A stretch of DNA of 64,000 nucleotides. Origin: Candidatus Sumerlaeota bacterium. Lineage in GTDB: Bacteria > Sumerlaeota > Sumerlaeia > SLMS01 > JAHLLQ01. The DNA is taken from NCBI GenBank assembly GCA_030156535.1, contig JASGMJ010000009.1, positions 5,237 through 69,236 on the forward strand, read 5' to 3'. The position numbers were made by a program, and so were the translations under genes. Shown piece after piece: positions 33,711-53,400 of the stretch; within the stretch, counting starts at the first letter, position 1, and the number at the start of each line of letters is the position of its first letter. Under the pieces are notes generated by a model. It was not told the origin of the DNA and ran no database searches. It saw only the letters and a list, made by a program, of their open reading frames with translations.

Positions 33711-33741
33711 CGGATCAAACCTCACACTTTCGTCAGTCGGT

Positions 33742-37259: not shown

Positions 37260-37407
37260 CGATCCACACCTGTCTGGGCCACCCGCGGTATCTGCAAGGG
37301 AAGGCCTTCTTTTTTTGGAATTAAGAATAACGCCGGATTGGGAATGCTGACAATTCGGAAGATAAATGGTTCAATTGTAGTCTTCGGCAGAAGCCGATCT
37401 ATATTAC

Positions 37408-38871
37408 TCATGTCTGCCCACGTGAGCCTATTGCCTTGGTGCCCGTCAAGAGTAAGGCACCCACCAAGAGAAAATGAAATCCCACGATGGGCAGCCGTAG
37501 ATGAAAGTCGAAAAAGGCATGAACAAGCGTGATGGCCATTCCCGCCAATGCAGCCCGGCGGAATCCTCTCATCCGCCTGCCAAGAATCGCACTTCCACTG
37601 TCCCATTCTCTCTTGAAGCATCGCAGGAACCACACCAAGGCGCCAAGAACGGCCGCCGTCCAGACCAACCCCAGTTCCGAAACTACTTGCACATAATCGT
37701 TGTGCGACCAAACGGCAAGAACACTTGTGGGTCTGCCAAGCAGGAAACGGTTTATGGATGCCTCGGCTCCGCCCAGCCCCAAACCCAGCAGCGGAACCTG
37801 TGCCAAACCCTTCAGTGTCGCCAGCCAGTACGCGGCTCGCCCTCCCAAATCCTCGGTCTCTGGCAGCCGGGCCGCGAAACCTTCGAGCGCCGACGAAAAG
37901 AGAAGAAGAGTGATGCCGGAAGCAGCAATCAGCCCCATCACCCAGACGTTTACCCCCAGCAGCCCGCCACCGTCACTCTTGCGCTTCTGTGTGCCTTGTT
38001 CGCGCTTCCTCCCAATCGGAAGGCGCATCGCAACATCGGCCAGTCCCACCAAGGCGACGGCTAGCAACGAACCGCGCGAAAGCGCCAGCATCCAGCCGAT
38101 AAAAGCCACCGCGACCACGCCACCCAGAAACAGCATCAGGTCGCGCCGCTGCGACTCCATGTAGCCGTAGCGATTGTATTTCTGCCGCGTTGCCACCCAC
38201 CATGCGGCAATGGGCAGACCCAGCATCACAAGCGCTGCGTGATGGTTCGAGTTGTACGCAATGCCGAAAGCACGGTCGGTGCTTCCCAGCACATAGACCA
38301 CAGCCCCGATCCACGCCTCCACCACGGCACCACCCGCCACCAGGACAGCCAGAATGACAAAGCCGCGCTGGCGCGATGCCACGACGCAGGCACCGATGAA
38401 ATACAGCAGACTCGCTGCCATCTGGTTCCAGCCGCGCCATGCCGCTTCGGGCGTGATGGCCAGTGGCACGCGGTCGGGCACCGGATAGCCTGCCTGCCGC
38501 ATGGCCGCCAATGCTTCACGCCAAAAGGGCGACACCCGTTCGACAAAATCCACGGGTAGGGGAATCAGCGTCGCCCCCGACCACAGAAGCGTTCCCACGC
38601 CAATCGCCAGCAGAACGCGCAACGCCGTGTACGGACGCAGGCTGAACCGCCCCGATGCCCAGAACGCAACTCCCCACACTCCCAGCAGCCCGCAGGCAAT
38701 CCAGCCCCAGGCCCGCAACATATCCTCATACCCATATCCAAAAGAAAAGCACGCGCCCGCCTCGATCAGCAAAACCAACGCAGGCCCTACCCAGTAAAAT
38801 GCCTCCCGAAGGGTGACCCCCGAGCCCAGCCCACCACTCTCCCACTCCTGCTCCCAAGACGCATGGGTCAT
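37408..38871 (-). CDS. O-antigen ligase / Wzy_C-family membrane protein
   Basis: Polytopic. Wzy_C signature SHNDYVQVVSELG in a large periplasmic loop. Confidence 0.7.
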   Translation of the reverse strand: MTHASWEQEWESGGLGSGVTLREAFYWVGPALVLLIEAGACFSFGYGYEDMLRAWGWIACGLLGVWGVAFWASGRFSLRPYTALRVLLAIGVGTLLWSGATLIPLPVDFVERVSPFWREALAAMRQAGYPVPDRVPLAITPEAAWRGWNQMAASLLYFIGACVVASRQRGFVILAVLVAGGAVVEAWIGAVVYVLGSTDRAFGIAYNSNHHAALVMLGLPIAAWWVATRQKYNRYGYMESQRRDLMLFLGGVVAVAFIGWMLALSRGSLLAVALVGLADVAMRLPIGRKREQGTQKRKSDGGGLLGVNVWVMGLIAASGITLLLFSSALEGFAARLPETEDLGGRAAYWLATLKGLAQVPLLGLGLGGAEASINRFLLGRPTSVLAVWSHNDYVQVVSELGLVWTAAVLGALVWFLRCFKREWDSGSAILGRRMRGFRRAALAGMAITLVHAFFDFHLRLPIVGFHFLLVGALLLTGTKAIGSRGQT

Positions 38872-40178
38872 TGAGTGACTTCTCCTTGCGCGGTGGCGAA
38901 CTCGATGCCTTCCAGATAAACGACCTGATCCCCGGCCTCCGGGGCATCACGGTGTGTGCGCCCCAAGGAAAGCGACAGCATTACCGGTGCATCGGTGGGA
39001 GCGAGAACAGCTTCGTACACGCTTTCTTCCTCCGCCATTGGCACCTTGCGTGCGCTATTGTGAAAGGCTTCTCCCTGCTTGGCGATCAGGATGCACGGCG
39101 ACTCGGTCGCACCTTCCGCCCGCAGGCGAATGCGCACGCGGACAGGATGCTCGTGCGCGGGCATCGGCAACTCATACATCAGCCAGCGGAACTCTTTGCT
39201 CTTCACCGGAGAGGCGCGGAACGTCAGCCTCAGCCTTCCTGCTCCCTCGCCTTCCAGCCAGTACAACTCCGCGTTCGGTGTTATTGTGAAAGGCCGCCAG
39301 CCAAAAGGAAAATTGTCTGACAACGGCGAGCGTTCCAGCGTCAGGTTCTCCGCCAGCAGAGGAGGTTGCGTGTTGGCGCCGGGCACCTGCTCCAGGCTGC
39401 CGCTCTCCAACTGCCAGACCTTCCAGGCCGCTTCCAGCACGACAGGGCTCTTCAGCAGTCGTGCCAGTCGCTGGCGAAACTCCGCGTCCGAATATGTCTC
39501 TTCGGGGATCAAGGACACGACTTCGGCTACGGCGTCCGCATCATTGTACCAGAGTCCCTCAAGAAGATCCGCCGTCTCGGCAGGGGAGAGCCCCTCGCGC
39601 CACAAGAGACCCCAAGCCTCGCTCGGAGGCACTCCGATCCACAGCAGGCGTTGCGCGGCGGCCTTGCGTGCGCTTGCCGTCGTACCGCCAATCTGCACTG
39701 CCAGAGCAACGGCCCGGTCGCGCTCACCGAGCAAGTCCCACAACTCGACGGCCATCAGACGCCGATCGGTGTGGAACGGATGGAGGACGTCGGAATGCTC
39801 CAGCGCCGCTCTTGCCTGGTCGGGTTCGCCCTGAAACAACCGGTAACGTGCTCCATAGAGCCAGAGTTTGGACTTCATGGGCGCCAGCAGCAACGCGCGT
39901 GCGATCAACTCCTGGGCCCCTTCGTACTGCGGCGGAATTGGCTGCTCGCCAAGGAAGTACGCCATCGTCAGCAGCTGCTCCGAGTCGGCGGGAACATCCG
40001 CGAGCGTCTGCGACGCCAGAAATTCGAAGTCATCGCGCTCCCACTGCACCCGCCAGGCCTCGCGTTCCTCGAGCGACTGCAGATTCGCTCGCCCCCAATA
40101 CGCGACGGTGGGGACAAGAAATGCCAGAACCAACCAACGGTGCCAGCGGGAGCTTCTCTTTTTGCCTGATGGGGACAC
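38868..40178 (-). CDS. Membrane-anchored hypothetical protein (N-terminal TM, helical-repeat-like region). Co-transcribed with the O-antigen ligase-like gene.
   Basis: N-terminal TM WLVLAFLVPTVAY. ATGA-type 4-nt overlap with the downstream gene. Confidence 0.45.
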   Translation of the reverse strand: MSPSGKKRSSRWHRWLVLAFLVPTVAYWGRANLQSLEEREAWRVQWERDDFEFLASQTLADVPADSEQLLTMAYFLGEQPIPPQYEGAQELIARALLLAPMKSKLWLYGARYRLFQGEPDQARAALEHSDVLHPFHTDRRLMAVELWDLLGERDRAVALAVQIGGTTASARKAAAQRLLWIGVPPSEAWGLLWREGLSPAETADLLEGLWYNDADAVAEVVSLIPEETYSDAEFRQRLARLLKSPVVLEAAWKVWQLESGSLEQVPGANTQPPLLAENLTLERSPLSDNFPFGWRPFTITPNAELYWLEGEGAGRLRLTFRASPVKSKEFRWLMYELPMPAHEHPVRVRIRLRAEGATESPCILIAKQGEAFHNSARKVPMAEEESVYEAVLAPTDAPVMLSLSLGRTHRDAPEAGDQVVYLEGIEFATAQGEVTQ

Positions 40179-40292
40179 GGGAGAATCGCGAAAGGGGAGT
40201 GTGCAGAAGGAGCAGCGGTGCAGTCACAAAAAAGCGCCGGGGCAAGCAACCGCCCCGGCGCACGTATCATTGTAAGGAAAGGACTTCGCCGA

Positions 40293-41132
40293 TCAGGGGA
40301 TCAGGTCGCTGGCATCCAGATCGTTGAGTTCCTTGCGGAGCTTGTGCACGTCGTCTTCCAGATTGCTGGACTTGTTCAGGCCATAGATTCCAACGCCCAG
40401 GCCTGCAACGCCAACGCCAACACCGGCGAGACCCACTGCGGAACCGCCGCCACCGCCGCCACCGCTGGATGCTGCGGGTGCGGTGGTCTGGGCTGCATCC
40501 TGCTGGGCCAGCGGCTGGAGGCCGCGCGTACCGGGCATCCACTTGCCCGCTTCGTTCAGCACCATTTCGAGCGTATCGTTGGCGCCGACCACGGCAAGCT
40601 GCGCGCCGGTCTTGATATCCTTGACCACGGCCATCTCGTTGAGCGCGGAGAGGCGGATCGTCTGCGGGCCAAGCTGTTCCACGGCGAGAACCGCGGACTT
40701 CGCTTCGCCAGCCGTCGGCACCACTTCCGTCTCACCCTCTTCGGCGAGCGGCTGAACCGTGCTGAAATCAATCGTGTCGTACTCAACACTCATCGGGTTG
40801 CCCGACTGGAAACCGGCAGCCACGGTGCCCGACTGCAAGCGGACAATGCGCTCCTGGACCATGGAGACTTCCGAGTTGCTGCCAACCAGCACAGTGCCGT
40901 TGTCCGCGAGGCGGATTGTCACAGGCTCGGCACCCGCGATGACGCGGTCGCCCACCATCAGGCGCGCCATCTGGCCAGCACCCGGTGTCATCGTGTCCGT
41001 TGCCTGGACGATTTCATAGCCACCCTTCCCATCCACAACCCCAACCCAAGTTGCGGCGGCCTCAGCCCCCATTCCAAAGGCGGGCAGCGATAGCACTCCC
41101 GCTGTCAGCAAGATTCCGAGAAACTTCTTCAT
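40293..41132 (-). CDS. Secreted hypothetical protein with a Gly-rich C-terminal hydrophobic segment
   Basis: Signal peptide MKKFLGILLTAGVLSLPAFG. C-terminal SSGGGGGGGSAVGLAGVGVGVAGLGVGIYGL. Confidence 0.5.
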   Translation of the reverse strand: MKKFLGILLTAGVLSLPAFGMGAEAAATWVGVVDGKGGYEIVQATDTMTPGAGQMARLMVGDRVIAGAEPVTIRLADNGTVLVGSNSEVSMVQERIVRLQSGTVAAGFQSGNPMSVEYDTIDFSTVQPLAEEGETEVVPTAGEAKSAVLAVEQLGPQTIRLSALNEMAVVKDIKTGAQLAVVGANDTLEMVLNEAGKWMPGTRGLQPLAQQDAAQTTAPAASSGGGGGGGSAVGLAGVGVGVAGLGVGIYGLNKSSNLEDDVHKLRKELNDLDASDLIP

Positions 41133-41442
41133 GTTGAGCTGCCTGTCCTATATTGAGATAGTGAAATGCTTAAAGACGAGAATGGATACGCCTCGACTTG
41201 CCGGTGATGAGAACCGCTCCCATGCCCCGTGTCAAGCTGGAAGGGAGACTTTTTTGCAGATACTTCTCGCCGATCCACAAATCGAAGAGATTTTCTGTCT
41301 GATACTTTGCATTCTGATTCTATTGGGCTTGAGGGTGGGTGGAGATGCGTGTCGCCGGGCTCTGAAGCTGGCTGCTTAGTTGTCGGGGCCAAAAAAAATC
41401 ACATTCGGCACCCTGAATCTATCGCGCTCCACATTGCCGTCA

Positions 41443-42042
41443 TCAGGCGGGATCTTCTGCTGCGCCATCAGCCGATATCATGGTGGACTTCTCTGGACGC
41501 CCGGCGGCAAGACCTCTCCGCCGCCCTATAATTGAAGCTACCCTCCTTGCCGCTCCCCAGGCAATCAGGAAAGCGCCCCATCCTGCAATAATCCCCCCCC
41601 AAGCCCACTGGAGGTCCTCCCATGTTGCGTTGCGTTTTGGGATGAACTGTTGCCGATACTCATCATAAGCGGGAATCAGGAGCACCGCCAGCAGCGGAAT
41701 CCCCAGTGCCACCCACTTCCACCGCCGCCCCAGAAGGCGTATTCCCAGAAACCCCAGAAAACCGGCCAGCAACCCGTAGGGCACGGAGACGGCGAAGTGG
41801 AGATAGTAGTCGATATGCCTGGGAGGGGTCTTGCGCCATCTCGGGGGAGTCAGTGCATGGACGATCCGGTTGCTCCGGATTTCCTTCTCATACCGTTGCG
41901 TCGTCGCAACGGGGGAGGTGGCCAATGTCGTGGTGAAGGCAAAGTAGCCTCCCAGAATACAGAGGGCCAAGCCGAGCAGCACGCTCAACCTAAGGTGACT
42001 CCGGCGAGACTGATTATTCTTTTGTGGGGAACATTCCTGCAT
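41443..42042 (-). CDS. Small polytopic membrane protein, possibly VanZ-like
   Basis: Four predicted TM helices. The assignment is weak. Confidence 0.35.
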   Translation of the reverse strand: MQECSPQKNNQSRRSHLRLSVLLGLALCILGGYFAFTTTLATSPVATTQRYEKEIRSNRIVHALTPPRWRKTPPRHIDYYLHFAVSVPYGLLAGFLGFLGIRLLGRRWKWVALGIPLLAVLLIPAYDEYRQQFIPKRNATWEDLQWAWGGIIAGWGAFLIAWGAARRVASIIGRRRGLAAGRPEKSTMISADGAAEDPA

Positions 42043-42483: not shown

Positions 42484-43845
42484 ATGACAGCAACAGCTTC
42501 TCTTCTCGATCAATCCTTGAATCCTGCTGCCACGCAACTCATCGACAAAATCCGCAACCGCACCGCAGTGATCGGTGTCATCGGCCTTGGCTATGTCGGG
42601 CTTCCGCTGCTCATCGAGTTCCACAAGGCTGGCTTTCCGGTTATTGGGCTCGACATCGACACCAGCAAAATCGAGAGCCTGCGTGCCGGCAAGTCCTACA
42701 TCCTCCACATCCCCGGCGAGAACGTCGCGGCGATGGCTGCGAGCGAAAAGTTCTCCGCCTCCTCCGACATGGCCGACGCGAACAAGTGCGACGCGCTGCT
42801 TCTGTGCGTTCCGACGCCACTAACCCATCACCGCGAACCGGACATCACGTATGTCACCTGCACCTGCGAGAGCATCGCTCCGGCCATGCGCGCCGGCCAG
42901 ATCGTCATCCTCGAATCCACAACCTACCCGGGCACGACCGATGAAGTCATGGTGCCGATTCTGGAGAAGGGCTCGGGCCTGAAGGCCGGGCGCGACTTCT
43001 TCGTCGCCTACTCGCCCGAACGCGAAGACCCCAGCAACAAGAGCTTCAGCACGGCAACGATCCCAAAGGTCGTCGGCGCCATGACGCCCCAGGGACTCGA
43101 AGCGGCCAAGAGCCTCTACGATGCCGTCGTCGTGAAGACGATCCCCGTTTCCTCCACGCGCGTCGCCGAAGCCACCAAGCTGATGGAGAACATCTTCCGC
43201 TGCGTCAACATCGCGATGGTCAACGAACTCAAAGTCGTTTTCCAGCGGATGGACATCGACATCTGGGAGGTCATCGAGGCCGCCAAGACCAAGCCCTTCG
43301 GCTTTATGCCCTTCTATCCCGGCCCCGGCCTGGGTGGACACTGCATCCCCATCGACCCCTTCTATCTGACGTGGAAGGCGCGCGAGTACGAAACGCCCAC
43401 CCGCTTCATCGAACTCGCTGGTGAAATCAACACCGAGATGCCCAAGTACGTCGTTTCGCAGACGATGGAAGCTCTCAACGAGCAGGGCAAGGCACTCAAG
43501 GGAAGCCGCATCCTGCTCATCGGATTGGCCTACAAGGCTGATGTCGACGACTTGCGCGAAAGCCCCACCTTCAAGCTCATCGAACTCTTCGAGAAGCGCG
43601 GCGCCGAAGTTCTCTTCCACGACCCGCACATTCCCGAAATCATGATGACGCGTGAACACGCCGCCCTTGCAGGCCGCAAATCCGTCCCGCTGGACGAGGC
43701 TGCGAAGTGCGACGCAACGGTCATCTCCACCGCGCACGCCGCCGTCGATTACGCCAAGCTTGGTAAGATCGCCAAGGTCATCGTCGACACGCGCAACGCC
43801 ATGGTGGGTGTCACCGACGCCACCGCCGCCATCCACAAAGCCTGA
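42484..43845 (+). CDS. UDP-N-acetyl-D-mannosamine/glucosamine 6-dehydrogenase family (nucleotide-sugar dehydrogenase, WecC/Cap5O/WbpA-like)
   Basis: N-terminal Rossmann IGVIGLGYVGLP, catalytic-Cys region GGHCIPIDP and a UDP-binding C-terminal domain. Confidence 0.9.
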   Translation: MTATASLLDQSLNPAATQLIDKIRNRTAVIGVIGLGYVGLPLLIEFHKAGFPVIGLDIDTSKIESLRAGKSYILHIPGENVAAMAASEKFSASSDMADANKCDALLLCVPTPLTHHREPDITYVTCTCESIAPAMRAGQIVILESTTYPGTTDEVMVPILEKGSGLKAGRDFFVAYSPEREDPSNKSFSTATIPKVVGAMTPQGLEAAKSLYDAVVVKTIPVSSTRVAEATKLMENIFRCVNIAMVNELKVVFQRMDIDIWEVIEAAKTKPFGFMPFYPGPGLGGHCIPIDPFYLTWKAREYETPTRFIELAGEINTEMPKYVVSQTMEALNEQGKALKGSRILLIGLAYKADVDDLRESPTFKLIELFEKRGAEVLFHDPHIPEIMMTREHAALAGRKSVPLDEAAKCDATVISTAHAAVDYAKLGKIAKVIVDTRNAMVGVTDATAAIHKA

Positions 43846-43938: not shown

Positions 43939-44949
43939 ATGAAGATTCTCGTTACCGGAACGGCCGGTTTCATCGGCTTCCATCTTGCCAACTCGCTGCT
44001 CGATGACGGCCATGAAGTCGTCGGACTCGACAACTTCAATCAGTACTACGCCCCCGTTTTGAAGGAACGCCGTCACGCCATCCTCGAAGCACGCGAAGGC
44101 TTCCGCCCGTTCAAGTGCTCGCTCGAGGACTCTGATCGCGTCCTTGCCTGCATGAAGCAGGAGCGCTTTGACGTGGTCGTCAACCTGGCCGCACAGGCCG
44201 GCGTGCGCCACTCGCTCACACATCCCTTCGATTACATGCGCTGCAATCTCGAAGGGTTCCTCAGCATCCTCGAAGGCTGCCGTCACTCCGAAGTCCCGCG
44301 ACTGGTGTACGCCTCCAGTTCCAGCGTCTATGGCAGCAACACCAAGCTGCCCTTCAGCGAGTCCGACAGCGTCGATACTCCCGTCAGCCTCTACGCCGCC
44401 ACAAAGAAGGCCAACGAGCTGATGGCCCACACCTACACGCACCTCTACGGCCTCCAGACCATCGGCCTGCGGTTCTTCACGGTCTACGGCCCGTGGGGAC
44501 GCCCCGACATGGCCATGTGGCTGTTCGCCGACGCCATTCAGCAAGGCAAGCCCATCAAGGTCTTCAACCACGGCGACATGCGCCGCGACTTCACCTACAT
44601 CGCAGAAATTGTCGATGGCGTGAAGCGTTGCGTTGTCACCGAAGGCCTCGACAAGTACGAAGTCTTCAACCTCGGCAACCATCGCAGCGAAAAGCTGATG
44701 GATATGATCGAGTACCTCGGAAAGTGCATGGGCAAGCAGCCCGAAATGGAACTGCTTCCCATGCAGCCTGGCGATGTGCCCGCGAGCTTTGCCGACATTG
44801 ATCGCGCCCGCACGAAGCTGGGCTTCGAGCCGCGCACGACCATCTTCGACGGCGTCTCCGCATTCGTCGAGTGGTTCAAGGAAAACCAGGACCTCGTCGA
44901 CCAGGTACGTGCCTGGGAATCCCGGCCGCAAACCGGCACAAAGGTCTGA
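43939..44949 (+). CDS. NAD-dependent epimerase (UDP-glucuronate 4-epimerase-like, GalE/WcaG family)
   Basis: ILVTGTAGFIGFHL and the YAATKKANE catalytic motif. Confidence 0.9.
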   Translation: MKILVTGTAGFIGFHLANSLLDDGHEVVGLDNFNQYYAPVLKERRHAILEAREGFRPFKCSLEDSDRVLACMKQERFDVVVNLAAQAGVRHSLTHPFDYMRCNLEGFLSILEGCRHSEVPRLVYASSSSVYGSNTKLPFSESDSVDTPVSLYAATKKANELMAHTYTHLYGLQTIGLRFFTVYGPWGRPDMAMWLFADAIQQGKPIKVFNHGDMRRDFTYIAEIVDGVKRCVVTEGLDKYEVFNLGNHRSEKLMDMIEYLGKCMGKQPEMELLPMQPGDVPASFADIDRARTKLGFEPRTTIFDGVSAFVEWFKENQDLVDQVRAWESRPQTGTKV

Positions 44950-44960
44950 GCAACAAACCC

Positions 44961-46256
44961 ATGACATCTCCCCTTATCCGCATCGAAGGTCCCACGCCGC
45001 TCTTCGGCGAAATCGACGTGCGTGGCGCCAAGAACGCCGCGCTGCCGCTCCTCATGGCCGCCGCGGCAGGCTCCGCGCCAGTCACACTGACGAACCTGCC
45101 CACGGAACTCCGTGACATCCAGGCCGAGATCGAAGCCCTGCGCTATATCGGCTGCAACGTCGAGCAGGCCGACGGCACCGCCACGCTCGCGCTCTCCGAC
45201 CCCACGACCACCGAGCTTCCCCCGGAAATCTCCGGCAAGATTCGCACATCCCTACTCTTCCTTGGTCTTCTGGCCGGCAGATTCGGACACGCGAAGATCA
45301 CCATGCCGGGGGGGTGCGATCTCGGTGACCGCAAGTTCGACCTCCATCTCGAAGGCCTGCGCCTTCTTGGGGCCGATATTCACGTCGACGAGCACTCCAT
45401 CGAAGTCACGGCCAAAAAGCTGAAGGGCGCCGACATTCACTTCTACCTTCCTTCAACCACCGGGACGGAGAACGTGATGATTGCGGCGTGCTTTGCCGAG
45501 GGCCGCACGCGCATCTTCAATGCGAACACCCGCCCCGAAGTCGCCGACCTTGCCGTCTGCCTCAACGCGATGGGAGCACGCATCTCCGTGCGCAACCGCG
45601 TCGTCGAAGTGGAGGGCGGCCGCCTTCTTGGTGGTGCCACGCACAAGGTGATGAAGGGCTGGGACGAAGCGGTGACGTACATTCTCGCCGCGGGACTCTC
45701 CGGGGGGGAAATCTGTATCCGGGATTTCAGCACCGACTTCATCCGCAACGATGTCGCCTACATGCGCGACGCCGGACTCGATGTTTTCGAATGGGGCGGA
45801 AATCTCTATGCCAGCGGCAAGGGCAAGAAGCTCCGCGCCTTTGATCTCTTCACGGCTCCCTATCCGGGAGTAAACTCCGACATGCAGCCGCTCTTCGCCG
45901 CCTTCGCCAGCAAGTGCGAGGGCTCGACGAGTGTCACCGACCAGCGATTCACCGAACGCTTCCAATACGCCGCCGAACTCCGCAAGATGGGCGTGCCGAT
46001 CGAATCCTACGGCAATTGCGCCGTGATCGAAGGACCTGCCCGCCTCAAGGGCGCCAATGTCCGCGCGCTCGATCTGCGTTGCGGAGCCGCCCTTGTCATG
46101 GCCGGCCTTGCCGCGGAAGGCACGACGGTCATCGACAATTGCCAGCAAATCTATCGCGGCTACGAGCTTCTCGTTCCGCGCCTTCGTTCGCTTGGGGCCA
46201 ATATCAGCGGCGAGACCGAAGAAACAAATGTCCGGTTGCAACCCTCTCATGCCTGA
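44961..46256 (+). CDS. murA: UDP-N-acetylglucosamine 1-carboxyvinyltransferase paralog (MurA-like enolpyruvyl transferase) embedded in the polysaccharide cluster
   Basis: KNAALPLL motif and active-site Cys loop GGCDLGDRKFDLH. ~430 aa, EPSP-synthase-fold repeats. Confidence 0.85.
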   Translation: MTSPLIRIEGPTPLFGEIDVRGAKNAALPLLMAAAAGSAPVTLTNLPTELRDIQAEIEALRYIGCNVEQADGTATLALSDPTTTELPPEISGKIRTSLLFLGLLAGRFGHAKITMPGGCDLGDRKFDLHLEGLRLLGADIHVDEHSIEVTAKKLKGADIHFYLPSTTGTENVMIAACFAEGRTRIFNANTRPEVADLAVCLNAMGARISVRNRVVEVEGGRLLGGATHKVMKGWDEAVTYILAAGLSGGEICIRDFSTDFIRNDVAYMRDAGLDVFEWGGNLYASGKGKKLRAFDLFTAPYPGVNSDMQPLFAAFASKCEGSTSVTDQRFTERFQYAAELRKMGVPIESYGNCAVIEGPARLKGANVRALDLRCGAALVMAGLAAEGTTVIDNCQQIYRGYELLVPRLRSLGANISGETEETNVRLQPSHA

Positions 46257-47208
46257 ATCCGGCGCGCTTCTCAAGCCGCCGGGTGAACACATCGTCGGCA
46301 CTGTTCGCTGCAACGAGCCACTCTGTCTCCACGCAAACTGGGAGATTGGCGGGCCTGCGGACTACTTGCTCGAACCTGCCAGTCCCGCGCAGCTTGCCGC
46401 CGGACTGCAATGGATTCGCGAGAACTCTCTTCCCTTTGCCATCATTGGTGACGGCACAAACATCCTCTTTCCCGACGAGGGGTTTCGTGGCGCGATCATC
46501 AAGATTGGCCGCCGGATGAGCAGCCATCGCATCGAGGGCATGACGATCGACGCGCAGGCAGGCGCGTGGATTCCCAGTCTTGCACGCATTGCCGCCGCCG
46601 CCGGCATTGGTGGCATGGAGCACACGATCGGCATTCCAGGCACGCTGGGCGGACTTGTTCTGATGAATGGCGGCAGCCTGCGGAAAAGCATCGGGACCAT
46701 GGTGCGCCGCGTCTGGGCACTTGATCGCGAAGGCAATGAGCACCAACTCGATCATGAGGAGTGCGCCTTCGAGTACCGCAAGTCCGCGCTCCAGTCCAAC
46801 GGTCTCATCGTCACGCGGGTGCTTCTCGAAGGTACGCCGCGCGATCCCGGCGAATCCCGGCGCGAAATGCTCGACATCATTCGCAAACGCCGCCTGAAGT
46901 TTCCCAAGAAGCTCCCGAACTGCGGTTCCGTCTTCATCAGCCGCCCCGAAATGTACGACACCTACGGCCCTCCGGGAAAGATCATCGAGGAGACCGGCCT
47001 CAAGGGGACGCGTATTGGCGGCGCCATGATCCCCGATCTGCACGCGAATTTCATCGTCAACGCGGGAGGCGCCACGGCGGCCGACATCAAGAGCATGGTT
47101 CGGCTCGTCCGGGAAAAGGTGCATGCCCGCACCGGTTTCTGGATGATCTGCGAAGTGCGCACTCTCCTGCCCGACGGTTCTTTCCGCCCCGTCCACGAGG
47201 TCCTCTAG
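46228..47208 (+). CDS. murB: UDP-N-acetylenolpyruvoylglucosamine reductase (MurB) paralog. An alternative start is at 46249.
   Basis: FAD-binding PCMH domain (FAIIGDGTNILF), and C-terminal KLPNCGSVF and GGAMIP..HANFIVN MurB motifs. It overlaps murA. Confidence 0.85.
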   Translation: MSGCNPLMPESGALLKPPGEHIVGTVRCNEPLCLHANWEIGGPADYLLEPASPAQLAAGLQWIRENSLPFAIIGDGTNILFPDEGFRGAIIKIGRRMSSHRIEGMTIDAQAGAWIPSLARIAAAAGIGGMEHTIGIPGTLGGLVLMNGGSLRKSIGTMVRRVWALDREGNEHQLDHEECAFEYRKSALQSNGLIVTRVLLEGTPRDPGESRREMLDIIRKRRLKFPKKLPNCGSVFISRPEMYDTYGPPGKIIEETGLKGTRIGGAMIPDLHANFIVNAGGATAADIKSMVRLVREKVHARTGFWMICEVRTLLPDGSFRPVHEVL

Positions 47209-47217
47209 CTCCACCAC

Positions 47218-47787
47218 ATGGGACTCTTCGCTTGTTTCTCCCAAGACCTTCGCGCGCGTGGCCGCCGCGTTCCCGGGCCGGGTGCCCTGCTTGCCCGCTA
47301 CTTGTTCAATCCGGGCTATCGCGTCGTTGTTCTCTACCGTCTTGCCGAGTGGCTCCGCCGTCTGCCGTTGCCGATGCGCATCGGCCGTCTGTTTGCCCTC
47401 GCGATTCTGACGCGTCTTTCCCGTGTTCCCGGCGTCGAGATTCGCACTCGCCAGCCCATCGGCGAGGGCGTGGTGTTTCCACATCCGCACGACATCGTCA
47501 TCGGCGGGGGAGCCCGCATTGGCCGCAACGCGACCATCTATAACGGTGTGACGTTTGGGGGTAAAGGGGGCGACATCGAGGACGAATCCGGCGATCTGTT
47601 TGCCCGCTATCCGCGGATTGGCGACGACGTGATTGTTTATCCCGGTGCAAAGATCATTGGGCCGGTGGAGATCGGCTCGCGCTGCGTGATCGGAGCCAAC
47701 TCCGTTGTTCTTCAGTCCTTTGATGAAGACTGCGTGATTGCCGGAGTTCCAGCACGTCTTGTCAGGCGGATATCCCGTGAATCGTAG
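47218..47787 (+). CDS. Hexapeptide-repeat acetyltransferase (serine O-acetyltransferase-like / polysaccharide O-acetyltransferase)
   Basis: Left-handed beta-helix hexapeptide repeats (IGRNATIYNGVTFGG, IGDDVIVYPGAKIIG, IGANSVVL). Confidence 0.75.
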   Translation: MGLFACFSQDLRARGRRVPGPGALLARYLFNPGYRVVVLYRLAEWLRRLPLPMRIGRLFALAILTRLSRVPGVEIRTRQPIGEGVVFPHPHDIVIGGGARIGRNATIYNGVTFGGKGGDIEDESGDLFARYPRIGDDVIVYPGAKIIGPVEIGSRCVIGANSVVLQSFDEDCVIAGVPARLVRRISRES

Positions 47788-49165
47788 TACCGGGCCGTCA
47801 CGGCAACGGCCTCCCCAGGAAACCTTTGCAAAGTCCAGTGTCCAGACGATCGGTGTTCGCTTTATCCTTCTCGTGGCGAACTTCGGAACGGGCATCATTA
47901 CGGCACGCTGGCTCGGCCCCGAAGGTGTTGGCCTGTGCGCCCTGCTCTACATGATCAAGGACGTTGCCTTTCGATTCGGCAACCTTGGCATCGGGACGGC
48001 CTTCTCGTTCTTCATTGCGCGCAAGCTCGCCGGCACGCGGCGCCTCACTTTTCTCGCCTGGGTTCTCGGAGCAACTCTCGCGCTCGTGAGCAGCGGGGTT
48101 CTCCTCGCCATTCGCAAGCAGGCCTGGAGCCCCTGGAACAACGTCGATCTGCCGCTGTTCCTCCTCGCGTTGGGCACCGTTCCCGTGATGTATCTCACGA
48201 CGTTCTTCCAGCGCATCCTCAGCGGCCAGCTCCGCATTACACCCGTCAATGTTTCCAGCATCATCGGCGACTTCGCTCAGTTCGCCGGGCTTGTTGTTTT
48301 CATCGTGATTCTGCCTTGGGGGATTGCTGGCGCCGTTCTCGCCCTCCTTGTCAGCGACCTTCTCCGGCTCTCGTACCTTGTCCTGACGATGATTCGATTT
48401 CCATTCGATGACGAGGACAAAGCCCACGCCGACGACGCAAAGCCTGCGAGGGAATTGATTCCAGCCATTTGGCGCTATGGCCGCTGGCAGTACCTCATTA
48501 TGTTCGCCATGTATCTGGTCGAGGAGATGCCCATTCTCCTGCTCAAGGGAATCACGATGAACGATTCCTTTGTCGGCTTCTTTGCCCGCGCCCGTGGGCT
48601 GGGGCGCCAGACACGCCTGATGACGATGCCGATTTCACAGGTGCTGTTCCCCTTTACGGCGGCCTCCGAGGAAAAGGTCGCCGTTCGCCGCACCAACATG
48701 TTGTGCCGAAACCTCCTGATGATTTCGACTGTCGGCATCGCCTTTTCCTGTCTCATCATCGAGCCCGTCATTGTGTTCCTCTACGGCGAGGAGTTCCGCA
48801 CGGCGGCGTCGGTTTTCTATGTCCTGGCGCCAGGCGTGATCAGTTGGCCAATCGGCCATTTCCTGGCCACGCATCTCTCCGCCTCGGGCGAGCCGCACAA
48901 GGTCTTCTGGGCCTCGCTCCCTCCCGTTATTGTCGGCGGCATTGTTGGCTACTGGCTTGTTGGCGCCTACGGCGTTGTTGGCGCCGGCATGACGGCGACG
49001 ATCATCTACACCCTGCAAACATTCGTGCGTCTCCTGCAATACCACGCAACCTATACCACCACGTACCGCGAGATCCTTGTTGTTACCAGCGAGGATCTCG
49101 CGCGCTACAAGCAGCTCCCATCGCTCGTCATGGGCCGTCTGCGCAGAAAGCCCGCTTCTTCATGA
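47738..49165 (+). CDS. Wzx-like oligosaccharide flippase (MOP superfamily polysaccharide biosynthesis protein). The true start is probably downstream of 47738, possibly non-ATG.
   Basis: 12-14 TM helices and a PST-family-like composition. It lies within the glycan cluster and has a 50-nt overlap with the upstream gene. Confidence 0.65.
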   Translation: MPEFQHVLSGGYPVNRSTGPSRQRPPQETFAKSSVQTIGVRFILLVANFGTGIITARWLGPEGVGLCALLYMIKDVAFRFGNLGIGTAFSFFIARKLAGTRRLTFLAWVLGATLALVSSGVLLAIRKQAWSPWNNVDLPLFLLALGTVPVMYLTTFFQRILSGQLRITPVNVSSIIGDFAQFAGLVVFIVILPWGIAGAVLALLVSDLLRLSYLVLTMIRFPFDDEDKAHADDAKPARELIPAIWRYGRWQYLIMFAMYLVEEMPILLLKGITMNDSFVGFFARARGLGRQTRLMTMPISQVLFPFTAASEEKVAVRRTNMLCRNLLMISTVGIAFSCLIIEPVIVFLYGEEFRTAASVFYVLAPGVISWPIGHFLATHLSASGEPHKVFWASLPPVIVGGIVGYWLVGAYGVVGAGMTATIIYTLQTFVRLLQYHATYTTTYREILVVTSEDLARYKQLPSLVMGRLRRKPASS

Positions 49166-50349
49166 ATGCACCAGCCACCGAGCCCCGCGTCCTCTTCTTT
49201 ATTTCCGTCATGGGACACGGACGGGGCGGCCACTTCTATAGCCTTCGTACGACGGCTGAGGCTCTATCCGCGCACTTCCCCTGCCGGATTGTGATGCTTG
49301 GCAAGAAAGTCTCTCCCGTCATTGCTTCCTCCTCCGTCCCCCATTCGCTTGTTCGCGCAACGGGATGGAATCATCCGGCGGCCGTGCTTGCCATCAAGCG
49401 CGAGATTCGCGAGTTCCGTCCCACCGTCCTGCATTCCTTTGATGTCTCCAGTCACGGGTTGGTCCGCGCCGCAGGGGTATTGAGCAGGCTGCCCGTCGTG
49501 ATGACCAAAGCAGGAGGCCCCAATCCCAAGCGTTTCTTTCCGCGCGCGGACCACATTGTACTCTTCAGCAAGGAGAACGCCGACTTCTTCGCGGCGCATC
49601 CCAAGTTCCGCCGCGCACGCCGCTATCACATTCCCAACCGAGCTGTCGAAATCCAGGACGACCCCCGCCGCATCGCCAAGGCTCGCGCCACGCTCGATCC
49701 CAACCGTCCCACGTTCTTGCGCATCGCACGATTCAACCCTCACTATCGCGAGAGTCTGGTCCAGGCGGTCAACCTCGTAAAACGCCTGAACGGGGATGGT
49801 GCGCCCTGCCAGCTCGTGCTCATCGGTACCCCACAGATTCCGGCCGTTTACGGCGAGATTCTCGCTCTGCGCGACGAGCACATCCACATCTTTGCCGAGG
49901 ACGAGTACACCGTCGAAGCGAGCCAGCTACTTGGCCTTGCCGATTTTGTTGTCTCCACAGGCCGCTCCATCATGGAAGCCAGCAGCAAAGGGAAAGTCCT
50001 GCTGACGCCCTATGCAGGCGGCACGATCCCCGTTCTCGTCACTCCGGAGAACTTCCAGTCGTTCTTTGAGACCAACTTTTCGCCGCGCAATTCGCTTGCC
50101 GACTACAACGAAGAGGCCAACTACGCGCGGCTACGCACCCTGGTTACTGATCGCTCTCAGGCAGATCAACTCAAGAACCAGTCGCGCGAATGGTTCGACC
50201 GCCATTTCAGCATCCACGGTGCCATCGACGCTTACCGTGACGTCTACGAAACCGCCATGAGAGTTGGAGTTGGCTCTCCGCATCCTGTGGATGCTCTCCT
50301 TAACTCGGCCCTCTCACTTCGCCATTATGCCCGCGCAGCCAATGAATAA
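49162..50349 (+). CDS. Glycosyltransferase (GT-B fold, GT4-like)
   Basis: Size and context. ATGA overlap with the flippase. The start is an internal ATG of the long 48469 ORF. Confidence 0.6.
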   Translation: MNAPATEPRVLFFISVMGHGRGGHFYSLRTTAEALSAHFPCRIVMLGKKVSPVIASSSVPHSLVRATGWNHPAAVLAIKREIREFRPTVLHSFDVSSHGLVRAAGVLSRLPVVMTKAGGPNPKRFFPRADHIVLFSKENADFFAAHPKFRRARRYHIPNRAVEIQDDPRRIAKARATLDPNRPTFLRIARFNPHYRESLVQAVNLVKRLNGDGAPCQLVLIGTPQIPAVYGEILALRDEHIHIFAEDEYTVEASQLLGLADFVVSTGRSIMEASSKGKVLLTPYAGGTIPVLVTPENFQSFFETNFSPRNSLADYNEEANYARLRTLVTDRSQADQLKNQSREWFDRHFSIHGAIDAYRDVYETAMRVGVGSPHPVDALLNSALSLRHYARAANE

Positions 50350-51532
50350 TCCGCCCACAGCCTCATCTCCGGTTCGTGAAGAGGGACGTCCCCTTTTGAT
50401 TGTGGGCGATCTGTGCCCCATCAATGCGAATGAGTCTCTCTTTAGAGAAGCGACCTCTCCCGAGGATTTCGGCGGCGAGTGGACAGCCCTTTTTCACAAG
50501 GCAGCTTACTCGATCGCTAATCTGGAGTGTCCGCTAATCGAGTCCCCCTCTCCGGTGATCAAGACCGGTACGGTTATTGGGGCGCCACACGAGACGGCCA
50601 CAGGTCTCTCCCAACTGGGGCTAAAGGCCGTCAGTCTCGCCAACAACCACATAATGGATCATGGTGCGGCGGGGCTCACCACCACCATGAATACCTTGCA
50701 GGGAATCGGAATCGAGCACTTCGGAGCCGGTGATTCTGATGTTATTGCCCGGCGGCAGCATGAGTTCATGTTGGGTGGGCAGAGCGTCATTGTCTTTTCT
50801 GCAGCTGAGCATGAGTTCTCTATCGCGGGCCCGGGTACTCCTGGAGCAAACGGACTCGATCCGGCTCGTCTTGTTCTGGATGTTCATCGTGCCGCCGAGG
50901 CAGGCAAGTTTGTGATCGTTCTGCTTCATGCCGGCAAAGAGTATCACCCCTACCCGCCGCCCGCTCTTCGCGCCCTGTGTGCCGTCCTTGTCGAGGCCGG
51001 AGCCCGCTGCATTGTCTGCCAGCATTCTCATTGCATGGGGGCCATCGAGCGCTTCAACGACAGCGTTGTGTTCTATGGCCAGGGCAACTTCCTGTTTGAC
51101 TGGCACACGCGCCGGCCAGCCTCGTGGTATGAGGGCTTCCTGATTGAACTGGCCATTGATGATTCCGGAAAATTCGATTTCGACCTCCATTGCCTGAAGG
51201 CCGAGAGGGGACGACCGGGAACCCGTCTTCTCGCTCCCGAAGAGTCCACCGCCATACGCGAGCGTCTGTGCGCGATGGGGGCTCAATGCTCCGATCCACT
51301 TTTTCTGGAAGCCGAGTGGCGCCGCTTGTGCGACGCGAAGGCTGCGTTGTATTTCGCCATACTCCGAGGCCACGGGAGAATCCGGCGGGCTCTTGACGCG
51401 AAGATTGGCAGGATCCCCGCACACAAGGGAGAAGAGCTCACGACGCTCCTCAATATAATACGATGCGAAAGCCATCGAGAGGTTCTTTTGACAATCCTGG
51501 AACAAGCCCATGCAGCACGGAAAGGCTCGTGA
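50327..51532 (+). CDS. CapA/PGA_cap-family metallophosphatase-like protein
   Basis: GDLCPIN...LECPL...LANNHIMDHG...HAGKEYHPYP...CQHSHCMGAIE...VFYGQGNF pattern typical of CapA (calcineurin-like). Confidence 0.65.
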   Translation: MPAQPMNNPPTASSPVREEGRPLLIVGDLCPINANESLFREATSPEDFGGEWTALFHKAAYSIANLECPLIESPSPVIKTGTVIGAPHETATGLSQLGLKAVSLANNHIMDHGAAGLTTTMNTLQGIGIEHFGAGDSDVIARRQHEFMLGGQSVIVFSAAEHEFSIAGPGTPGANGLDPARLVLDVHRAAEAGKFVIVLLHAGKEYHPYPPPALRALCAVLVEAGARCIVCQHSHCMGAIERFNDSVVFYGQGNFLFDWHTRRPASWYEGFLIELAIDDSGKFDFDLHCLKAERGRPGTRLLAPEESTAIRERLCAMGAQCSDPLFLEAEWRRLCDAKAALYFAILRGHGRIRRALDAKIGRIPAHKGEELTTLLNIIRCESHREVLLTILEQAHAARKGS

Positions 51533-53141
51533 CTCTATGAATACATCGCGCGCCCATGAATTGGAATCGCCTCTTCACCTCTATCAGGCCGCCCGCTATC
51601 AGAGTGCGGATGGAAAATGGCACGACAAATTCGACTCCGCTGTAGAGGCACTTCCGGCGGAATGCCATGTCTTGACCTCTTCGATTTTGTCGCTTCTCTG
51701 TTTCAGTCAAGTCTGTGGGAACGCAACGCTCCTGCGGGAGATCGTTCGCCAACCGTGGCTCTCGTCCATAAATCCTGATGGAACAGTCAAGCTTTCCGAG
51801 ATTCCTCCGCACGGCTTTCTCGCTCCTTCGGTTGATACAATCGGGAAGGAACTCCTGAGCCGCCTGGAAGCGGAAGCGGAACGAGTTTGTTCGCGATTCT
51901 CCCGCGTTTATCTTCTTCTTTCCGGTGGACTCGACAGCCGGATCATCGCTGGTGTCACGGCGAAGCTTCATCGCAAGGGGATTTTGAAGGAAGCCCCCGT
52001 TGCCGTTACATGGGGATTCGCGGATTCCCGAGACGCCCACTATGCAAGGAAGATCGCTGAGCACTACAACTTTGAATGGATCAACATCCCCTTTGGCCCA
52101 AAGGAGGTGGAGGTCAACATCTCGGAGACCGCTTTGCACCTGGGGGCGCTCCATTCACCCGAGATGCTCCACTACATGACCTGGTTTGAGCGCATCGAGC
52201 CTGATGCACTTGTTCTCGCTGGCAGCTTTGGCGACTCGATCGGTAGGGCAGAGTTCTCCGGCCGGCACCTGCTGGAGTTGAATGAGTTCAAGCCCTCCGA
52301 CCCGTTTTCCCTGCTAAAGCCGGAGGTACGTGGCGCTTCGATTCAGGGCGTCAAGCGTGCGATTGCCGAGCTTGGCGAGCGGGCACCTGGAGCACCCAGG
52401 CATGCCAAGCTTGAGCACTACATGCAGGGATACCGGATGCGAGGGAACCTCTGCCATGCGTTGGGGCTCATCAACAGATACGCAACCATTTACCAGATGT
52501 TCACGGACCCAAGCGTCTATGGCTACATGTGGTCGCTTCATCCATCGTCTCGTACAGACGAAGTGTATGCGAGCCTGCTGGAGGAACTGGACCCCTTTCT
52601 GGCGCGCCTCCCCTGGGCTCGTAACAACAAGGCCGTGAGAGGGAAGACGGCCGGTGCCGAGCAGCGCCTGCTTGCCGCCTATCACGACTACACGGGATGG
52701 TCGGCAGGTCCATTGCGCAGCCATCTGGAAAAGCTCGTTGATCCTGAATGGTTTGAGGCTCAGGGCGTCTTCAATCCTGATGCGCTTGTCGCCATGCGCA
52801 ACACGGTCGCTACGTCGACAACCCGTGTCGGGCGAATCAACGACGTTTGGCTCTGGCTTGCCGGATTCCGCGTCATGGTTGACCACCTGGAACAAACGGG
52901 CCGCAAGATCTCCTACGAGATTCCCGAGCCAATGGATGGGAAGGGCCAGATCAAGGACGAGAGCAGAAGTCTAAAGGTGACCGTTCTCTCTCCTCTCCTG
53001 CGCACAGCCCAGCGTTCTGCTCCGCTTACTGCTTTCCTCAAGGAATGTCGAACGAGATTCCGCCATCTCAAGCGTCTCCGCTTGCGCGCACAGGCACTGA
53101 AGGAATTCCCGCCCACAATGGGGAGCCATGATGCCTCATGA
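51510..53141 (+). CDS. Asparagine-synthetase-family amidotransferase-like protein (PP-loop synthetase domain) lacking the N-terminal Cys nucleophile. WbpS-like sugar-amidating enzyme candidate.
   Basis: PP-loop LLLSGGLDSRIIAG. The N-terminus MQHGK has no MCG glutaminase start. Confidence 0.65.
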   Translation: MQHGKARDSMNTSRAHELESPLHLYQAARYQSADGKWHDKFDSAVEALPAECHVLTSSILSLLCFSQVCGNATLLREIVRQPWLSSINPDGTVKLSEIPPHGFLAPSVDTIGKELLSRLEAEAERVCSRFSRVYLLLSGGLDSRIIAGVTAKLHRKGILKEAPVAVTWGFADSRDAHYARKIAEHYNFEWINIPFGPKEVEVNISETALHLGALHSPEMLHYMTWFERIEPDALVLAGSFGDSIGRAEFSGRHLLELNEFKPSDPFSLLKPEVRGASIQGVKRAIAELGERAPGAPRHAKLEHYMQGYRMRGNLCHALGLINRYATIYQMFTDPSVYGYMWSLHPSSRTDEVYASLLEELDPFLARLPWARNNKAVRGKTAGAEQRLLAAYHDYTGWSAGPLRSHLEKLVDPEWFEAQGVFNPDALVAMRNTVATSTTRVGRINDVWLWLAGFRVMVDHLEQTGRKISYEIPEPMDGKGQIKDESRSLKVTVLSPLLRTAQRSAPLTAFLKECRTRFRHLKRLRLRAQALKEFPPTMGSHDAS

Positions 53142-53400
53142 CGCTTGCAGGCCGAGGTGTTTTTCGCGGAAAGAAGTCTGCGCCATTGGCGCTGCCCCGC
53201 CTGTGAATCAGTTGCCACGTCATTTGGGCACGACGGGATTGCACAGGATTTACCTCCTTGACGTGGGTGTGGGCGAATGATCCGGAGGGTGGGCGGAAGG
53301 GCTGATGAGCCTCGCGGAAGCGACTTTCGCCAGAGCCCCCGCTTTGGCCGGCAGCTCTCTCGTCTGCCCAGATCTATAGAAGCAATCAGAAGGGCATCCA

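Follow-up and report, generated by a model that had tools for sequence, protein, structure and literature searches.

Within a polysaccharide locus of Candidatus Sumerlaeota bacterium lie two overlapping genes that resemble murA and murB, and comparison of sequences and gene neighborhoods makes it quite probable, in our view, that they serve the capsule or exopolysaccharide operon of the Wzx/Wzy (Wza/Wzc) type around them and not peptidoglycan. The DNA under study is a stretch of 64,000 nucleotides, hereafter the window (GCA_030156535.1, contig JASGMJ010000009.1, positions 5,237-69,236 of the forward strand); coordinates below are positions in the window. We use the names MurA* and MurB* for MurA-like and MurB-like proteins of this type, and cassette family for the polysaccharide-associated MurA*/MurB* proteins as delimited in the present analysis. 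The pair is most likely accessory and horizontally mobile, as its relatives suggest, and the likely product, predicted from the retained active sites, is a uridine diphosphate (UDP)-sugar D-lactyl ether for capsule or exopolysaccharide. The two genes are:

44961..46256, plus strand: MurA* enolpyruvyl transferase, 431 aa, with a full-length EPSP_synthase/MurA match
46228..47208, plus strand: MurB* FAD-dependent enolpyruvyl reductase, 326 aa, or 319 aa from the alternative ATG at 46249

Both products are clear homologs of the enzymes after which they are named. MurA* matches Pfam EPSP_synthase with 242 bits over residues 9-406 of 431 and passes the NCBIfam MurA subfamily model NF006873 (394, cut-off 297), and solved MurA structures in the PDB align to its residues 8-415 with E = 3e-84 and ~280 bits. 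MurB* carries FAD_binding_4 and MurB_C domains, belongs to the type-II MurBs, and passes both PRK13905 (275.5 > 259) and TIGR00179 (182 > 144.5), on which a canonical Paenibacillus MurB used as control scores 371 and 280, respectively. Because the alignments are full-length and the E-values 1e-70 or better, chance matches are not an issue. The active sites are preserved as well. The catalytic Cys of MurA* lies in MPGGCDLGDRKFDLH (MPGGC) at residue 119, equivalent to Cys115 of Escherichia coli, and alignments show that the equivalents of Lys22/Asn23 (GAKNA), Arg91, Arg120, Asp305 and Arg397 are also kept; MurB* keeps R (EYRKS), S (NCGSVF), H (LHANF) and E (CEVR), equivalents of the S. aureus-type Arg188, Ser238, His271 and Glu308. 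The genes overlap by 29 nt if MurB* starts at the ATG at 46228, or by 8 nt if it starts at 46249 (its start is approximate, as are those of the Wzx and PGA_cap genes listed below). Only 11 nt separate the end of the upstream epimerase gene from MurA*, and 9 nt the end of MurB* from the downstream acetyltransferase gene. This overlap and tight spacing indicate co-transcription and translational coupling. An earlier sequence-only reading of the window had described a murA-like gene with its active-site Cys, here Cys119, and an adjacent, overlapping murB-like gene, and both descriptions hold.

With housekeeping MurA (EC 2.5.1.7) and MurB (EC 1.3.1.98) the pair thus shares folds, catalytic residues, among them the Cys that is the fosfomycin target, and a predicted two-step chemistry. 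MurA* nevertheless differs from housekeeping MurA in its low identity (~37%), its separate clade, its borderline equivalog score and its substitutions at FPTD, RP[IV], SVGAT and ET[IV]FENRF. At these four sites, the canonical GGCaIGaRP[IV]DLH is replaced in the cassette family by GGCxLG[DE]RK[FY]DLH (RKFDLH in the window), SVGAT by [ST]T[TSG][GA]T (STTGT), hPGFPTDmQaQ by YPG[VI]NSDMQPLF (VNSDMQ), and ET[IV]FENRFmH by D[QL]RF[TP][EDG]R[FY]xY (DQRFTERF); the signature motifs of the window protein read GGCDLGDRKFDLH, YPGVNSDMQPLF and DQRFTERFQY. The same replacements recur in ~90 MurA* relatives, all of the residues for phosphoenolpyruvate (PEP) binding and catalysis being kept, and they bring new basic residues at 121 (Pro to Lys) and 327 (Val to Arg) that are fixed in the family. 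Equivalog models tell a similar story: on the murA equivalog TIGR01072 the window protein scores 387.0, just under the cut-off of 392.7, and six cassette proteins span 368-399, as against 530 and 612 for the canonical controls (E. coli and Paenibacillus). The window protein also falls short on NF009470, another NCBIfam equivalog for MurA, with 318.7 against a cut-off of 552. In an exhaustive library clustered at 50% identity, the cassette motifs occur only in ~12 top clusters (316-620 bits), and below ~300 bits most of the matches are canonical.

Percent identity was also considered as a discriminator and was rejected, as the window protein stands as far from canonical MurA (37-38%) as from cassette subfamily 2 (37-42%); motifs, tree and gene context were used to separate the types. 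In a neighbor-joining tree with 100 bootstraps (49 taxa, 413 columns, no outgroup), three splits, each recovered in 100/100 bootstraps, set apart canonical MurA, cassette subfamily 1 and cassette subfamily 2. The canonical sample comprises seven proteins from Firmicutes and Proteobacteria, with none from Planctomycetota or Sumerlaeota: E. coli (ibaG-murA), Neisseria, Priestia (murAA-spoIID), Sphingomonas, Ruegeria, Agathobacter and Paenibacillus (murG-murB-murA-ftsQAZ). These canonical MurAs cluster apart from the cassette proteins of the same phyla. Subfamily 1 holds the window MurA* together with proteins from Planctomycetota, Sumerlaeia, Krumholzibacteria and Firmicutes, and subfamily 2 those from Bacteroidota, Proteobacteria, Cyanobacteria, Verrucomicrobiota and Trueperaceae. 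Mean identity is 50% among the canonical proteins of the seven taxa sampled and ~37% between them and either cassette subfamily. The two subfamilies themselves differ at fixed positions (GAKNAALP versus GAKNSALR/K; LPTTSGTEN versus xRSTGATEN; DQRFTERFQY versus DLRFPGRYGY), and these fixed differences may reflect different acceptor sugars or ether positions.

The distribution of the family points in the same direction. A scan of one genome per species (n=185,579) with peptide patterns taken from the window MurA* found carriers in 189 species genomes. Since, among the patterns used, only NSDMQPLF is broadly conserved, and variants such as NSDMQPIF (Paenibacillus mendelii) escape it, this number is a lower bound; even so, the family lies three orders of magnitude below universality, so that the family as a whole cannot be a housekeeping one. 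The best 80 of the 189 relatives, taken from species-representative genomes, served for locus statistics, and their loci cover at least 10 phyla-level groups. Carriers include Bacteroidota (Winogradskyella, Algoriphagus, Sphingobacterium, Pontibacter), Gamma- and Alphaproteobacteria (Psychrobacter, Photobacterium, Pseudoalteromonas, Aliidiomarina, Sphingomonas), Cyanobacteria (Anabaenopsis, Leptolyngbyaceae), Verrucomicrobiota, Kiritimatiellia, Trueperaceae, Firmicutes, Desantisbacteria, Krumholzibacteria, Planctomycetota and Sumerlaeia, with Nostocales and one Vibrionaceae species among them. Some copies are extrachromosomal: a mobilizable 311-kb Agrobacterium plasmid carries the pair with Wzc, dehydrogenase, epimerase and Wzy, a 382-kb Qingshengfaniella plasmid carries another copy, and further copies sit on chromids of Rhizobium gallicum and R. 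etli. A planctomycete-specific wall pathway was considered as an explanation and discarded, the same cassette being found in Firmicutes, Proteobacteria, Bacteroidota, Cyanobacteria and on plasmids.

The nearest MurA* homologs (58-69% identity) come from metagenome-assembled genomes (MAGs) of Phycisphaerae/Planctomycetota, followed by a tier at ~53% from Krumholzibacteriota, Bacteroidales and Paenibacillus mendelii, and the loci of the 58-69% homologs all show a module of MurA*, MurB*, in some cases a hexapeptide acetyltransferase, Wzx and a glycosyltransferase of the GT4 type, which recurs in the other contexts inspected, in P. mendelii without an adjacent MurB. The order in the window is epimerase, MurA*, MurB*, acetyltransferase, Wzx, GT4, PGA_cap. 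Neighbors were counted across the 80 loci by local BLASTP of the window proteins against all open reading frames (ORFs) lying within ±6 kb of MurA*, as follows:

MurB*: 67 of 80 loci
Wzx homolog: 45 of 80 loci
GT4-like transferase: 41 of 80 loci
acetyltransferase: 40 of 80 loci
dehydrogenase: 20 of 80 loci
epimerase ortholog (at least 45% identity): 13 of 80 loci
PGA_cap protein: 10 of 80 loci
at least one polysaccharide-assembly marker: 63 of 80 loci
MurG, FtsQ, FtsA or FtsZ homologs: 0 of 80 loci

The cassette is sporadic, partly plasmid-borne and placed in Wzx/Wzy loci, unlike housekeeping murA and murB, which stand in dcw or other housekeeping contexts, as in the Paenibacillus dcw cluster. 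The proposal of a dedicated paralog pair distinct from the housekeeping enzymes is strongly supported by comparison, through the 100/100 split, the fixed motif changes, the equivalog-borderline score and the relatives in polysaccharide loci and on plasmids. In one MAG (GCA_012974985.1, JABAOH010000351.1, positions 8271-9886) the module MurA*-MurB*-Wzx-GT4 has odd neighbors, standing directly after genes for a reductive-dehalogenase-like protein and a VcrB-like anchor.

In the window, which has a G+C content of ~62% and in which no tRNA genes or Rfam families were found, the polysaccharide locus spans ~32.5 kb to the window end (64000) and runs past it, and in the first 32 kb lie genes for transport and regulation along with assorted housekeeping genes. 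The assembly set comprises Wza, Wzc, two Wzy_C proteins, Wzx, four glycosyltransferases, WecB and WecG. The minus-strand genes form a divergent arm (32583..42042), followed by the plus-strand genes that surround the pair:

32583-33866, minus strand: Wza-like exporter
34920-37259, minus strand: Wzc-like tyrosine kinase/co-polymerase
37408-38871, minus strand: Wzy_C protein
38868-40178 and 40293-41132, minus strand: two proteins without a family
41443-42042, minus strand: VanZ-like protein
42484..43845, plus strand: UDP-N-acetylhexosamine 6-dehydrogenase of the N-acetylmannosamine (ManNAc)/N-acetylglucosamine (GlcNAc) type (TIGR03026, 413 bits)
43939..44949, plus strand: short-chain dehydrogenase/reductase (SDR) 4-epimerase, probably of the UDP-glucuronate/galacturonate 4-epimerase type (Pfam Epimerase)
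47218..47787, plus strand: hexapeptide-repeat O-acetyltransferase, serine-acetyltransferase-like (Hexapep match, EpsC/CysE-like)
47738..49165, plus strand: Wzx-type flippase, starting between 47738 and 47777 (Polysacc_synt, Polysacc_synt_3)
49162..50349, plus strand: divergent GT4-like glycosyltransferase (weak Glyco_transf_4 match), candidate transferase for the modified sugar
50342..51532, plus strand: PGA_cap protein with a CapA-like metallophosphatase fold (PF09587, 155 bits; weak 8gq9 match)
51510..53141, plus strand: asparagine-synthase-like (PP-loop adenylating) protein with an Asn_synthase domain only and no glutaminase domain
53401..54744, plus strand: Wzy_C-family polymerase or ligase-like membrane protein (Wzy_C 29 bits, below the 31.7 cut-off)
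54728-55876 and 55873-57096, plus strand: two GT1/GT4-family glycosyltransferases (Glycos_transf_1, Glyco_trans_1_4)
57096-59246, plus strand: ADH_zinc_N + GFO_IDH_MocA fusion oxidoreductase, 716 aa
59274-61253, plus strand: heparinase II/III-like protein
61523-62455, plus strand: WecG/TagA-family transferase of ManNAc or its uronic acid (ManNAcA) (PF03808, 189 bits)
62452-63591, plus strand: UDP-GlcNAc 2-epimerase, WecB (PF02350, 357 bits)

The placement of the pair between a 4-epimerase and an O-acetyltransferase followed by a Wzx flippase, as originally described, is thus correct, and so is its placement outside a dcw cluster, as no homolog of MurG, FtsQ, FtsA or FtsZ lies within the window. 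The same reading had sent the sugar to an O-antigen or capsule. The polysaccharide destination stands, given Wza, Wzc, Wzx and Wzy, and the O-antigen half of it fits less well, since the presence of both Wza and Wzc argues for capsule or exopolysaccharide instead. Among the scanned window ORFs none matched the Bac_transf or WecA/MraY families of initiating phosphoglycosyl transferases, in a locus that runs off the window end; the WecG/TagA-type transferase implies that a WecA-type initiator is encoded elsewhere.

Several of these genes have informative relatives. Among solved structures, the nearest to the dehydrogenase are Cap5O and a UDP-ManNAcA dehydrogenase of archaeal origin. For the epimerase, 5u4q (355 bits) ranks first and 6zl6 (172 bits) second, both before WbpP and WbgU; 6zl6, named in the PDB just 'Epimerase domain-containing protein', is what we take to be the B. 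cereus UDP-glucuronic acid (UDP-GlcA) 4-epimerase. The best solved relatives of the acetyltransferase are serine acetyltransferases, and the structure search returned no solved relative for the asparagine-synthase-like protein, which is a possible candidate for carboxyl amidation. Together with the PGA_cap protein it follows the GT4-like gene, and the two may amidate or otherwise modify the sugar carboxylate; a PGA_cap gene following GT4 is found mostly in Bacteroidota among the 10 loci that have one. The ATG of the GT4-like gene overlaps the Wzx stop (ATGA).

The whole cluster is collinear in two further loci, L004 on a 423-kb JGI contig and L012 in the GTDB Sumerlaeia representative ACE_SUM1. 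The gene order of the divergent arm is identical in L004, the gene at 53401-54744 is collinear with a Wzy_C gene there, and the asparagine-synthase-like gene is collinear in L004, L005 and L012. Identity to L004 and L012 varies along the cluster, from 83-84% for the dehydrogenase and epimerase through 68% for MurA* and 59-61% for MurB* to 52% for Wzx and 47% for Wzy, and G+C dips to 0.53-0.58 over the PGA_cap gene, the asparagine-synthase-like gene and the second Wzy gene (50000-54800), with flanks at 0.60-0.63. Uneven identities and the G+C dip together suggest a mosaic, a recombination signature typical of hypervariable polysaccharide loci. As side observations on the locus, it has two Wzy_C proteins (37408-38871, minus strand, and 53401-54744, plus strand), as does L004, one of them maybe the polymerase and the other ligase-like or a second polymerase. 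The ADH/GFO fusion stands directly before the heparinase II/III-like gene, an unusual arrangement, and the heparinase-like lyase fold inside a synthesis operon might act as a uronate C5-epimerase or in processing. Elsewhere in the window, and unrelated to the pair, are a 1274-aa protein (12838-16662) recognizable solely by its C-terminal F5/8 type C (discoidin) domain and a TgpA-type transglutaminase of 899 aa (27285-29984).

From the retained active sites and the gene order, a pathway can be proposed. In a first step, suggested by the retained equivalents of Lys22, Asn23, Arg91, Cys115, Arg120, Asp305 and Arg397, MurA* would move the enolpyruvyl group of PEP onto a hydroxyl of a UDP-sugar, at O-3 by analogy with MurA. 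In a second, suggested by the retained Arg, Ser, His and Glu of MurB*, this translationally coupled enzyme would use NADPH/FAD to turn the enol ether, by reduction, into a D-lactyl (1-carboxyethyl) ether. Gene linkage then points to the GT4-like transferase as the enzyme that would add the acidic sugar to an undecaprenyl-linked repeat unit, to the adjacent hexapeptide acetyltransferase as the one that would O-acetylate the unit, and to the linked Wzx, Wzy and Wzc/Wza as the proteins that would flip, polymerize and export it. The enolpyruvyl- and then lactyl-ether chemistry put forward earlier therefore agrees with the catalytic residues kept in both enzymes, and is retained here as a prediction and not as a demonstrated activity.

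As for the acceptor, a uronic acid, N-acetylated or not, is a serious candidate to which we would give slightly less than even weight; UDP-GlcNAc, which would yield true UDP-N-acetylmuramic acid (UDP-MurNAc), seems rather unlikely, and other sugars take the remainder. Uronic-acid candidates are UDP-GlcA, UDP-galacturonic acid (UDP-GalA) and UDP-N-acetylhexosaminuronic acid (UDP-HexNAcA), which could give a nosturonic-acid-like residue. The slight lean toward a uronic acid rests on the changed acceptor-side motifs and on the linked dehydrogenase and 4-epimerase. The changed motifs, including positions 121-122 and 326-330, presumably line the UDP-sugar site, as in the E. coli MurA-UDP-GlcNAc complex (1UAE). 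The UDP-GlcA-epimerase-like gene directly upstream of MurA*, with its orthologs in 13 loci, favors an acceptor other than GlcNAc, and so do the fixed motif changes, the asparagine-synthase-like gene of the locus and the chemical precedent of 3-O-lactyl-GlcA in Nostoc and Vibrio polysaccharides; profile scores near equivalog level and the retained Asn23 favor GlcNAc. It would be tempting to go further and see MurA*/MurB* as a general route to lactyl-ether uronic acids rather than to UDP-MurNAc, one in which Pro121 to Lys and Val327 to Arg fit an anionic acceptor, the asparagine-synthase-like and PGA_cap proteins amidate the carboxylate, and the capsule comes to bear muropeptide-like side groups. 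This idea is speculative, and we regard it as doubtful.

A number of points weigh against the proposed role, or against parts of it. The three MurA groups are roughly equidistant (36-38% identity), and since no outgroup roots the tree, the case for one common origin of both cassette subfamilies depends on their shared motifs. With MurB* above its equivalog cut-offs and MurA* ~5 bits short of its own, activity on UDP-GlcNAc is entirely possible. The dehydrogenase, being UDP-ManNAc/GlcNAc-like, may just feed the WecB/WecG branch toward ManNAcA, which weakens the argument for a uronic acid. In 13 of the 80 loci, among them L009, L061, L081, L023 and L085, MurA* has no MurB* within 6 kb, in some cases with full flanks; in P. 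mendelii (L009, JANHOF010000002.1, 8001-11146), for example, MurA*, acetyltransferase and Wzx stand in an exopolysaccharide cluster with full flanks and no adjacent MurB. In such loci the enolpyruvyl ether may be kept, converted otherwise or reduced by a distant MurB, so that lactyl reduction is perhaps not universal in the family. Finally, the open-access texts searched, an incomplete set, yielded no biochemical study of MurA/MurB paralogs in polysaccharide clusters and no account of the breadth of the cassette.

The loci without MurB* bear on one alternative in particular, in which the acceptor of MurA* is not a free UDP-sugar but a lipid-linked unit or another nucleotide, or in which the enolpyruvyl ether is retained in the product or a pyruvate ketal is formed. 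The nucleotide-side motif residues differ from the canonical ones, as this alternative would expect. Against this, MurB* of the window is intact, translationally coupled and catalytically complete, and MurA* retains the equivalents of Phe328 and Arg331 as well as Ser162 (Ser/Thr in the family), which we take, from MurA structures, to suggest binding of uridine diphosphate. NikO is an example of a MurA fold whose acceptor is not a sugar (4fqd, 113 bits; PMC6801904); the E. coli literature, on the other side, treats the lactyl sugar as a UDP-sugar (PMC7685785). On balance we consider such an acceptor or product improbable.

It could also be supposed that the pair is the organism's sole housekeeping murA/murB, placed in a polysaccharide locus by chance. 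The window contains no second MurA or MurB homolog, and MurB* scores above the MurB equivalog cut-offs with MurA* only just under its own; both facts weigh on the side of this supposition and so against a dedicated role. We nevertheless judge it very unlikely, in view of the 100/100 separation from canonical MurA and the changed acceptor-side motifs, the sporadic occurrence of the family and its plasmid and chromid copies. Moreover, the closest MurA* among species representatives is 69% identical although it belongs to another phylum (Sumerlaeota versus Phycisphaerales), compared with ~50% among the canonical MurAs of seven taxa. The lineages of carrier taxa, furthermore, presumably have ordinary murA/murB, for example those of Paenibacillus, Psychrobacter, Pseudoalteromonas, the Rhizobium with chromid copies and the Agrobacterium with the plasmid. 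A redundant or conditional supply of peptidoglycan precursors, like the Gram-positive MurA2/MurZ and with meaningless linkage, would agree with the full set of catalytic residues and with profile scores near the equivalog thresholds, but we hold it to be just as improbable as chance placement, because loci from at least 10 phyla-level groups keep the linkage to Wzx, GT4 and acetyltransferase, which is unexpected for a spare wall enzyme, because NF009470, presumably a MurA2-type model, gives 319 against a cut-off of 552, and because the family has fixed substitutions, including those at 121-122 and 326-330, presumably at the UDP-sugar site.

The proposed chemistry would not be without precedent. 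Lactyl-ether sugars occur in E. coli O58, O124, O146, O69 and O150, and wfeP of O124/S. dysenteriae 3 has been assigned to 'synthesis of UDP-D-GlcpLA' (PMC7685785), so that such sugars and genes for them are on record, which qualifies the statement, made with the original description of the locus, that their biosynthetic genes are poorly documented. In addition, a report on the S. boydii 17 O-antigen links 'two new genes' to a lactyl-ether ('glycolactilic acid') sugar, and a preprint likens a Campylobacter pgl 'pyruvyl transferase' to MurA and ties it to a 234-Da glucolactilic acid. Enolpyruvyl chemistry outside the wall is thus not a new idea for lactyl sugars, although no enzyme-level demonstration of lactyl-ether sugar synthesis was found in the literature searched. 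The E. coli/Shigella genes resemble the cassette in their product class, a UDP-activated 1-carboxyethyl ether sugar used in a Wzx/Wzy pathway, and differ in the sugar that bears the ether, which is Glc, GlcNAc (O-4) or Rha, with both R and S forms occurring; the comparison is one of products, not of gene sequences. A distant-setting blastn search of 5,426 E. coli genomes with the low-GC Photobacterium MurA* DNA gave no match, and the E. coli O-antigen catalogue papers do not mention murA, enolpyruvyl or wfeP in the text or supplements examined.

Ketal pyruvyltransferases belong to an unrelated protein family. CsaB, WcaK and PssM, like the pair, place a PEP-derived three-carbon acid on surface glycans and are encoded in polysaccharide clusters (PMC6801904), but they form cyclic 1-carboxyethylidene ketals, not ethers, and have no reductase. 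NikO, the nikkomycin enolpyruvyl-UMP transferase (4fqd), is closer in kind, being a Cys-dependent MurA fold outside peptidoglycan synthesis with an altered acceptor (PMC6801904). It is far more distant from the window protein than MurA structures are (113 bits versus ~280), uses a nucleotide 3'-OH, lacks a MurB partner and belongs to secondary metabolism. On the side of the product, there is a likeness to nosturonic acid (3-O-D-lactyl-GlcA; Nostoc commune, Vibrio alginolyticus), in which the O-3 position and the lactyl configuration match those of muramic acid; Nostocales and a Vibrionaceae species are also among the cassette carriers. In the exopolysaccharide of Vibrio alginolyticus, 3-O-lactyl-GlcA is accompanied by Ala-amidated GalA (PMC5983295), and by analogy an amino-acid-amidated GalA would fit the epimerase and asparagine-synthase-like genes of the window. 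No genes are assigned to nosturonic acid in the literature found, and the proposed link to it is one of analogy.

These results have practical consequences for annotation. On the two plasmids (L091, NZ_CP042263.1; L099, NZ_CP045856.1), RefSeq labels the genes of the cassette 'UDP-N-acetylglucosamine 1-carboxyvinyltransferase' and 'murB', with GO terms that cover the cell cycle, cell division and the synthesis of peptidoglycan, and the window MurA* is named likewise in NCBI. Such housekeeping labels on plasmid cassette genes are a consistent over-annotation, by which metabolic reconstructions and surveys of essential genes and antibiotic targets could miscount cassette genes as wall enzymes. 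In the sequences examined, the motifs [VI]NSD, RK[FY] and D[QL]RF separate the cassette from the canonical type.

Since the cassette is compact and conserved, comprising five to seven genes with a soluble enzyme pair and cultivable carriers (Paenibacillus mendelii, Psychrobacter sanguinis CCUG 59771, Pseudoalteromonas aurantia, Winogradskyella pelagia, Anabaenopsis elenkinii CCIBt3563, Agrobacterium sp. MA01 and Rhizobium gallicum R602sp are candidates), it makes lactyl-ether sugar synthesis directly testable, and if the route to lactyl-ether uronic acids outlined above were true, it would supply the enzymology for an entire class of acidic bacterial sugars across at least 10 phyla. Given the retained Cys, fosfomycin would be expected to act on capsule decoration as well in carriers. 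For the organism itself, the gene set predicts that the Sumerlaeota MAG makes an acidic, O-acetylated capsule or exopolysaccharide, part of whose genes look to have been exchanged with Planctomycetota.

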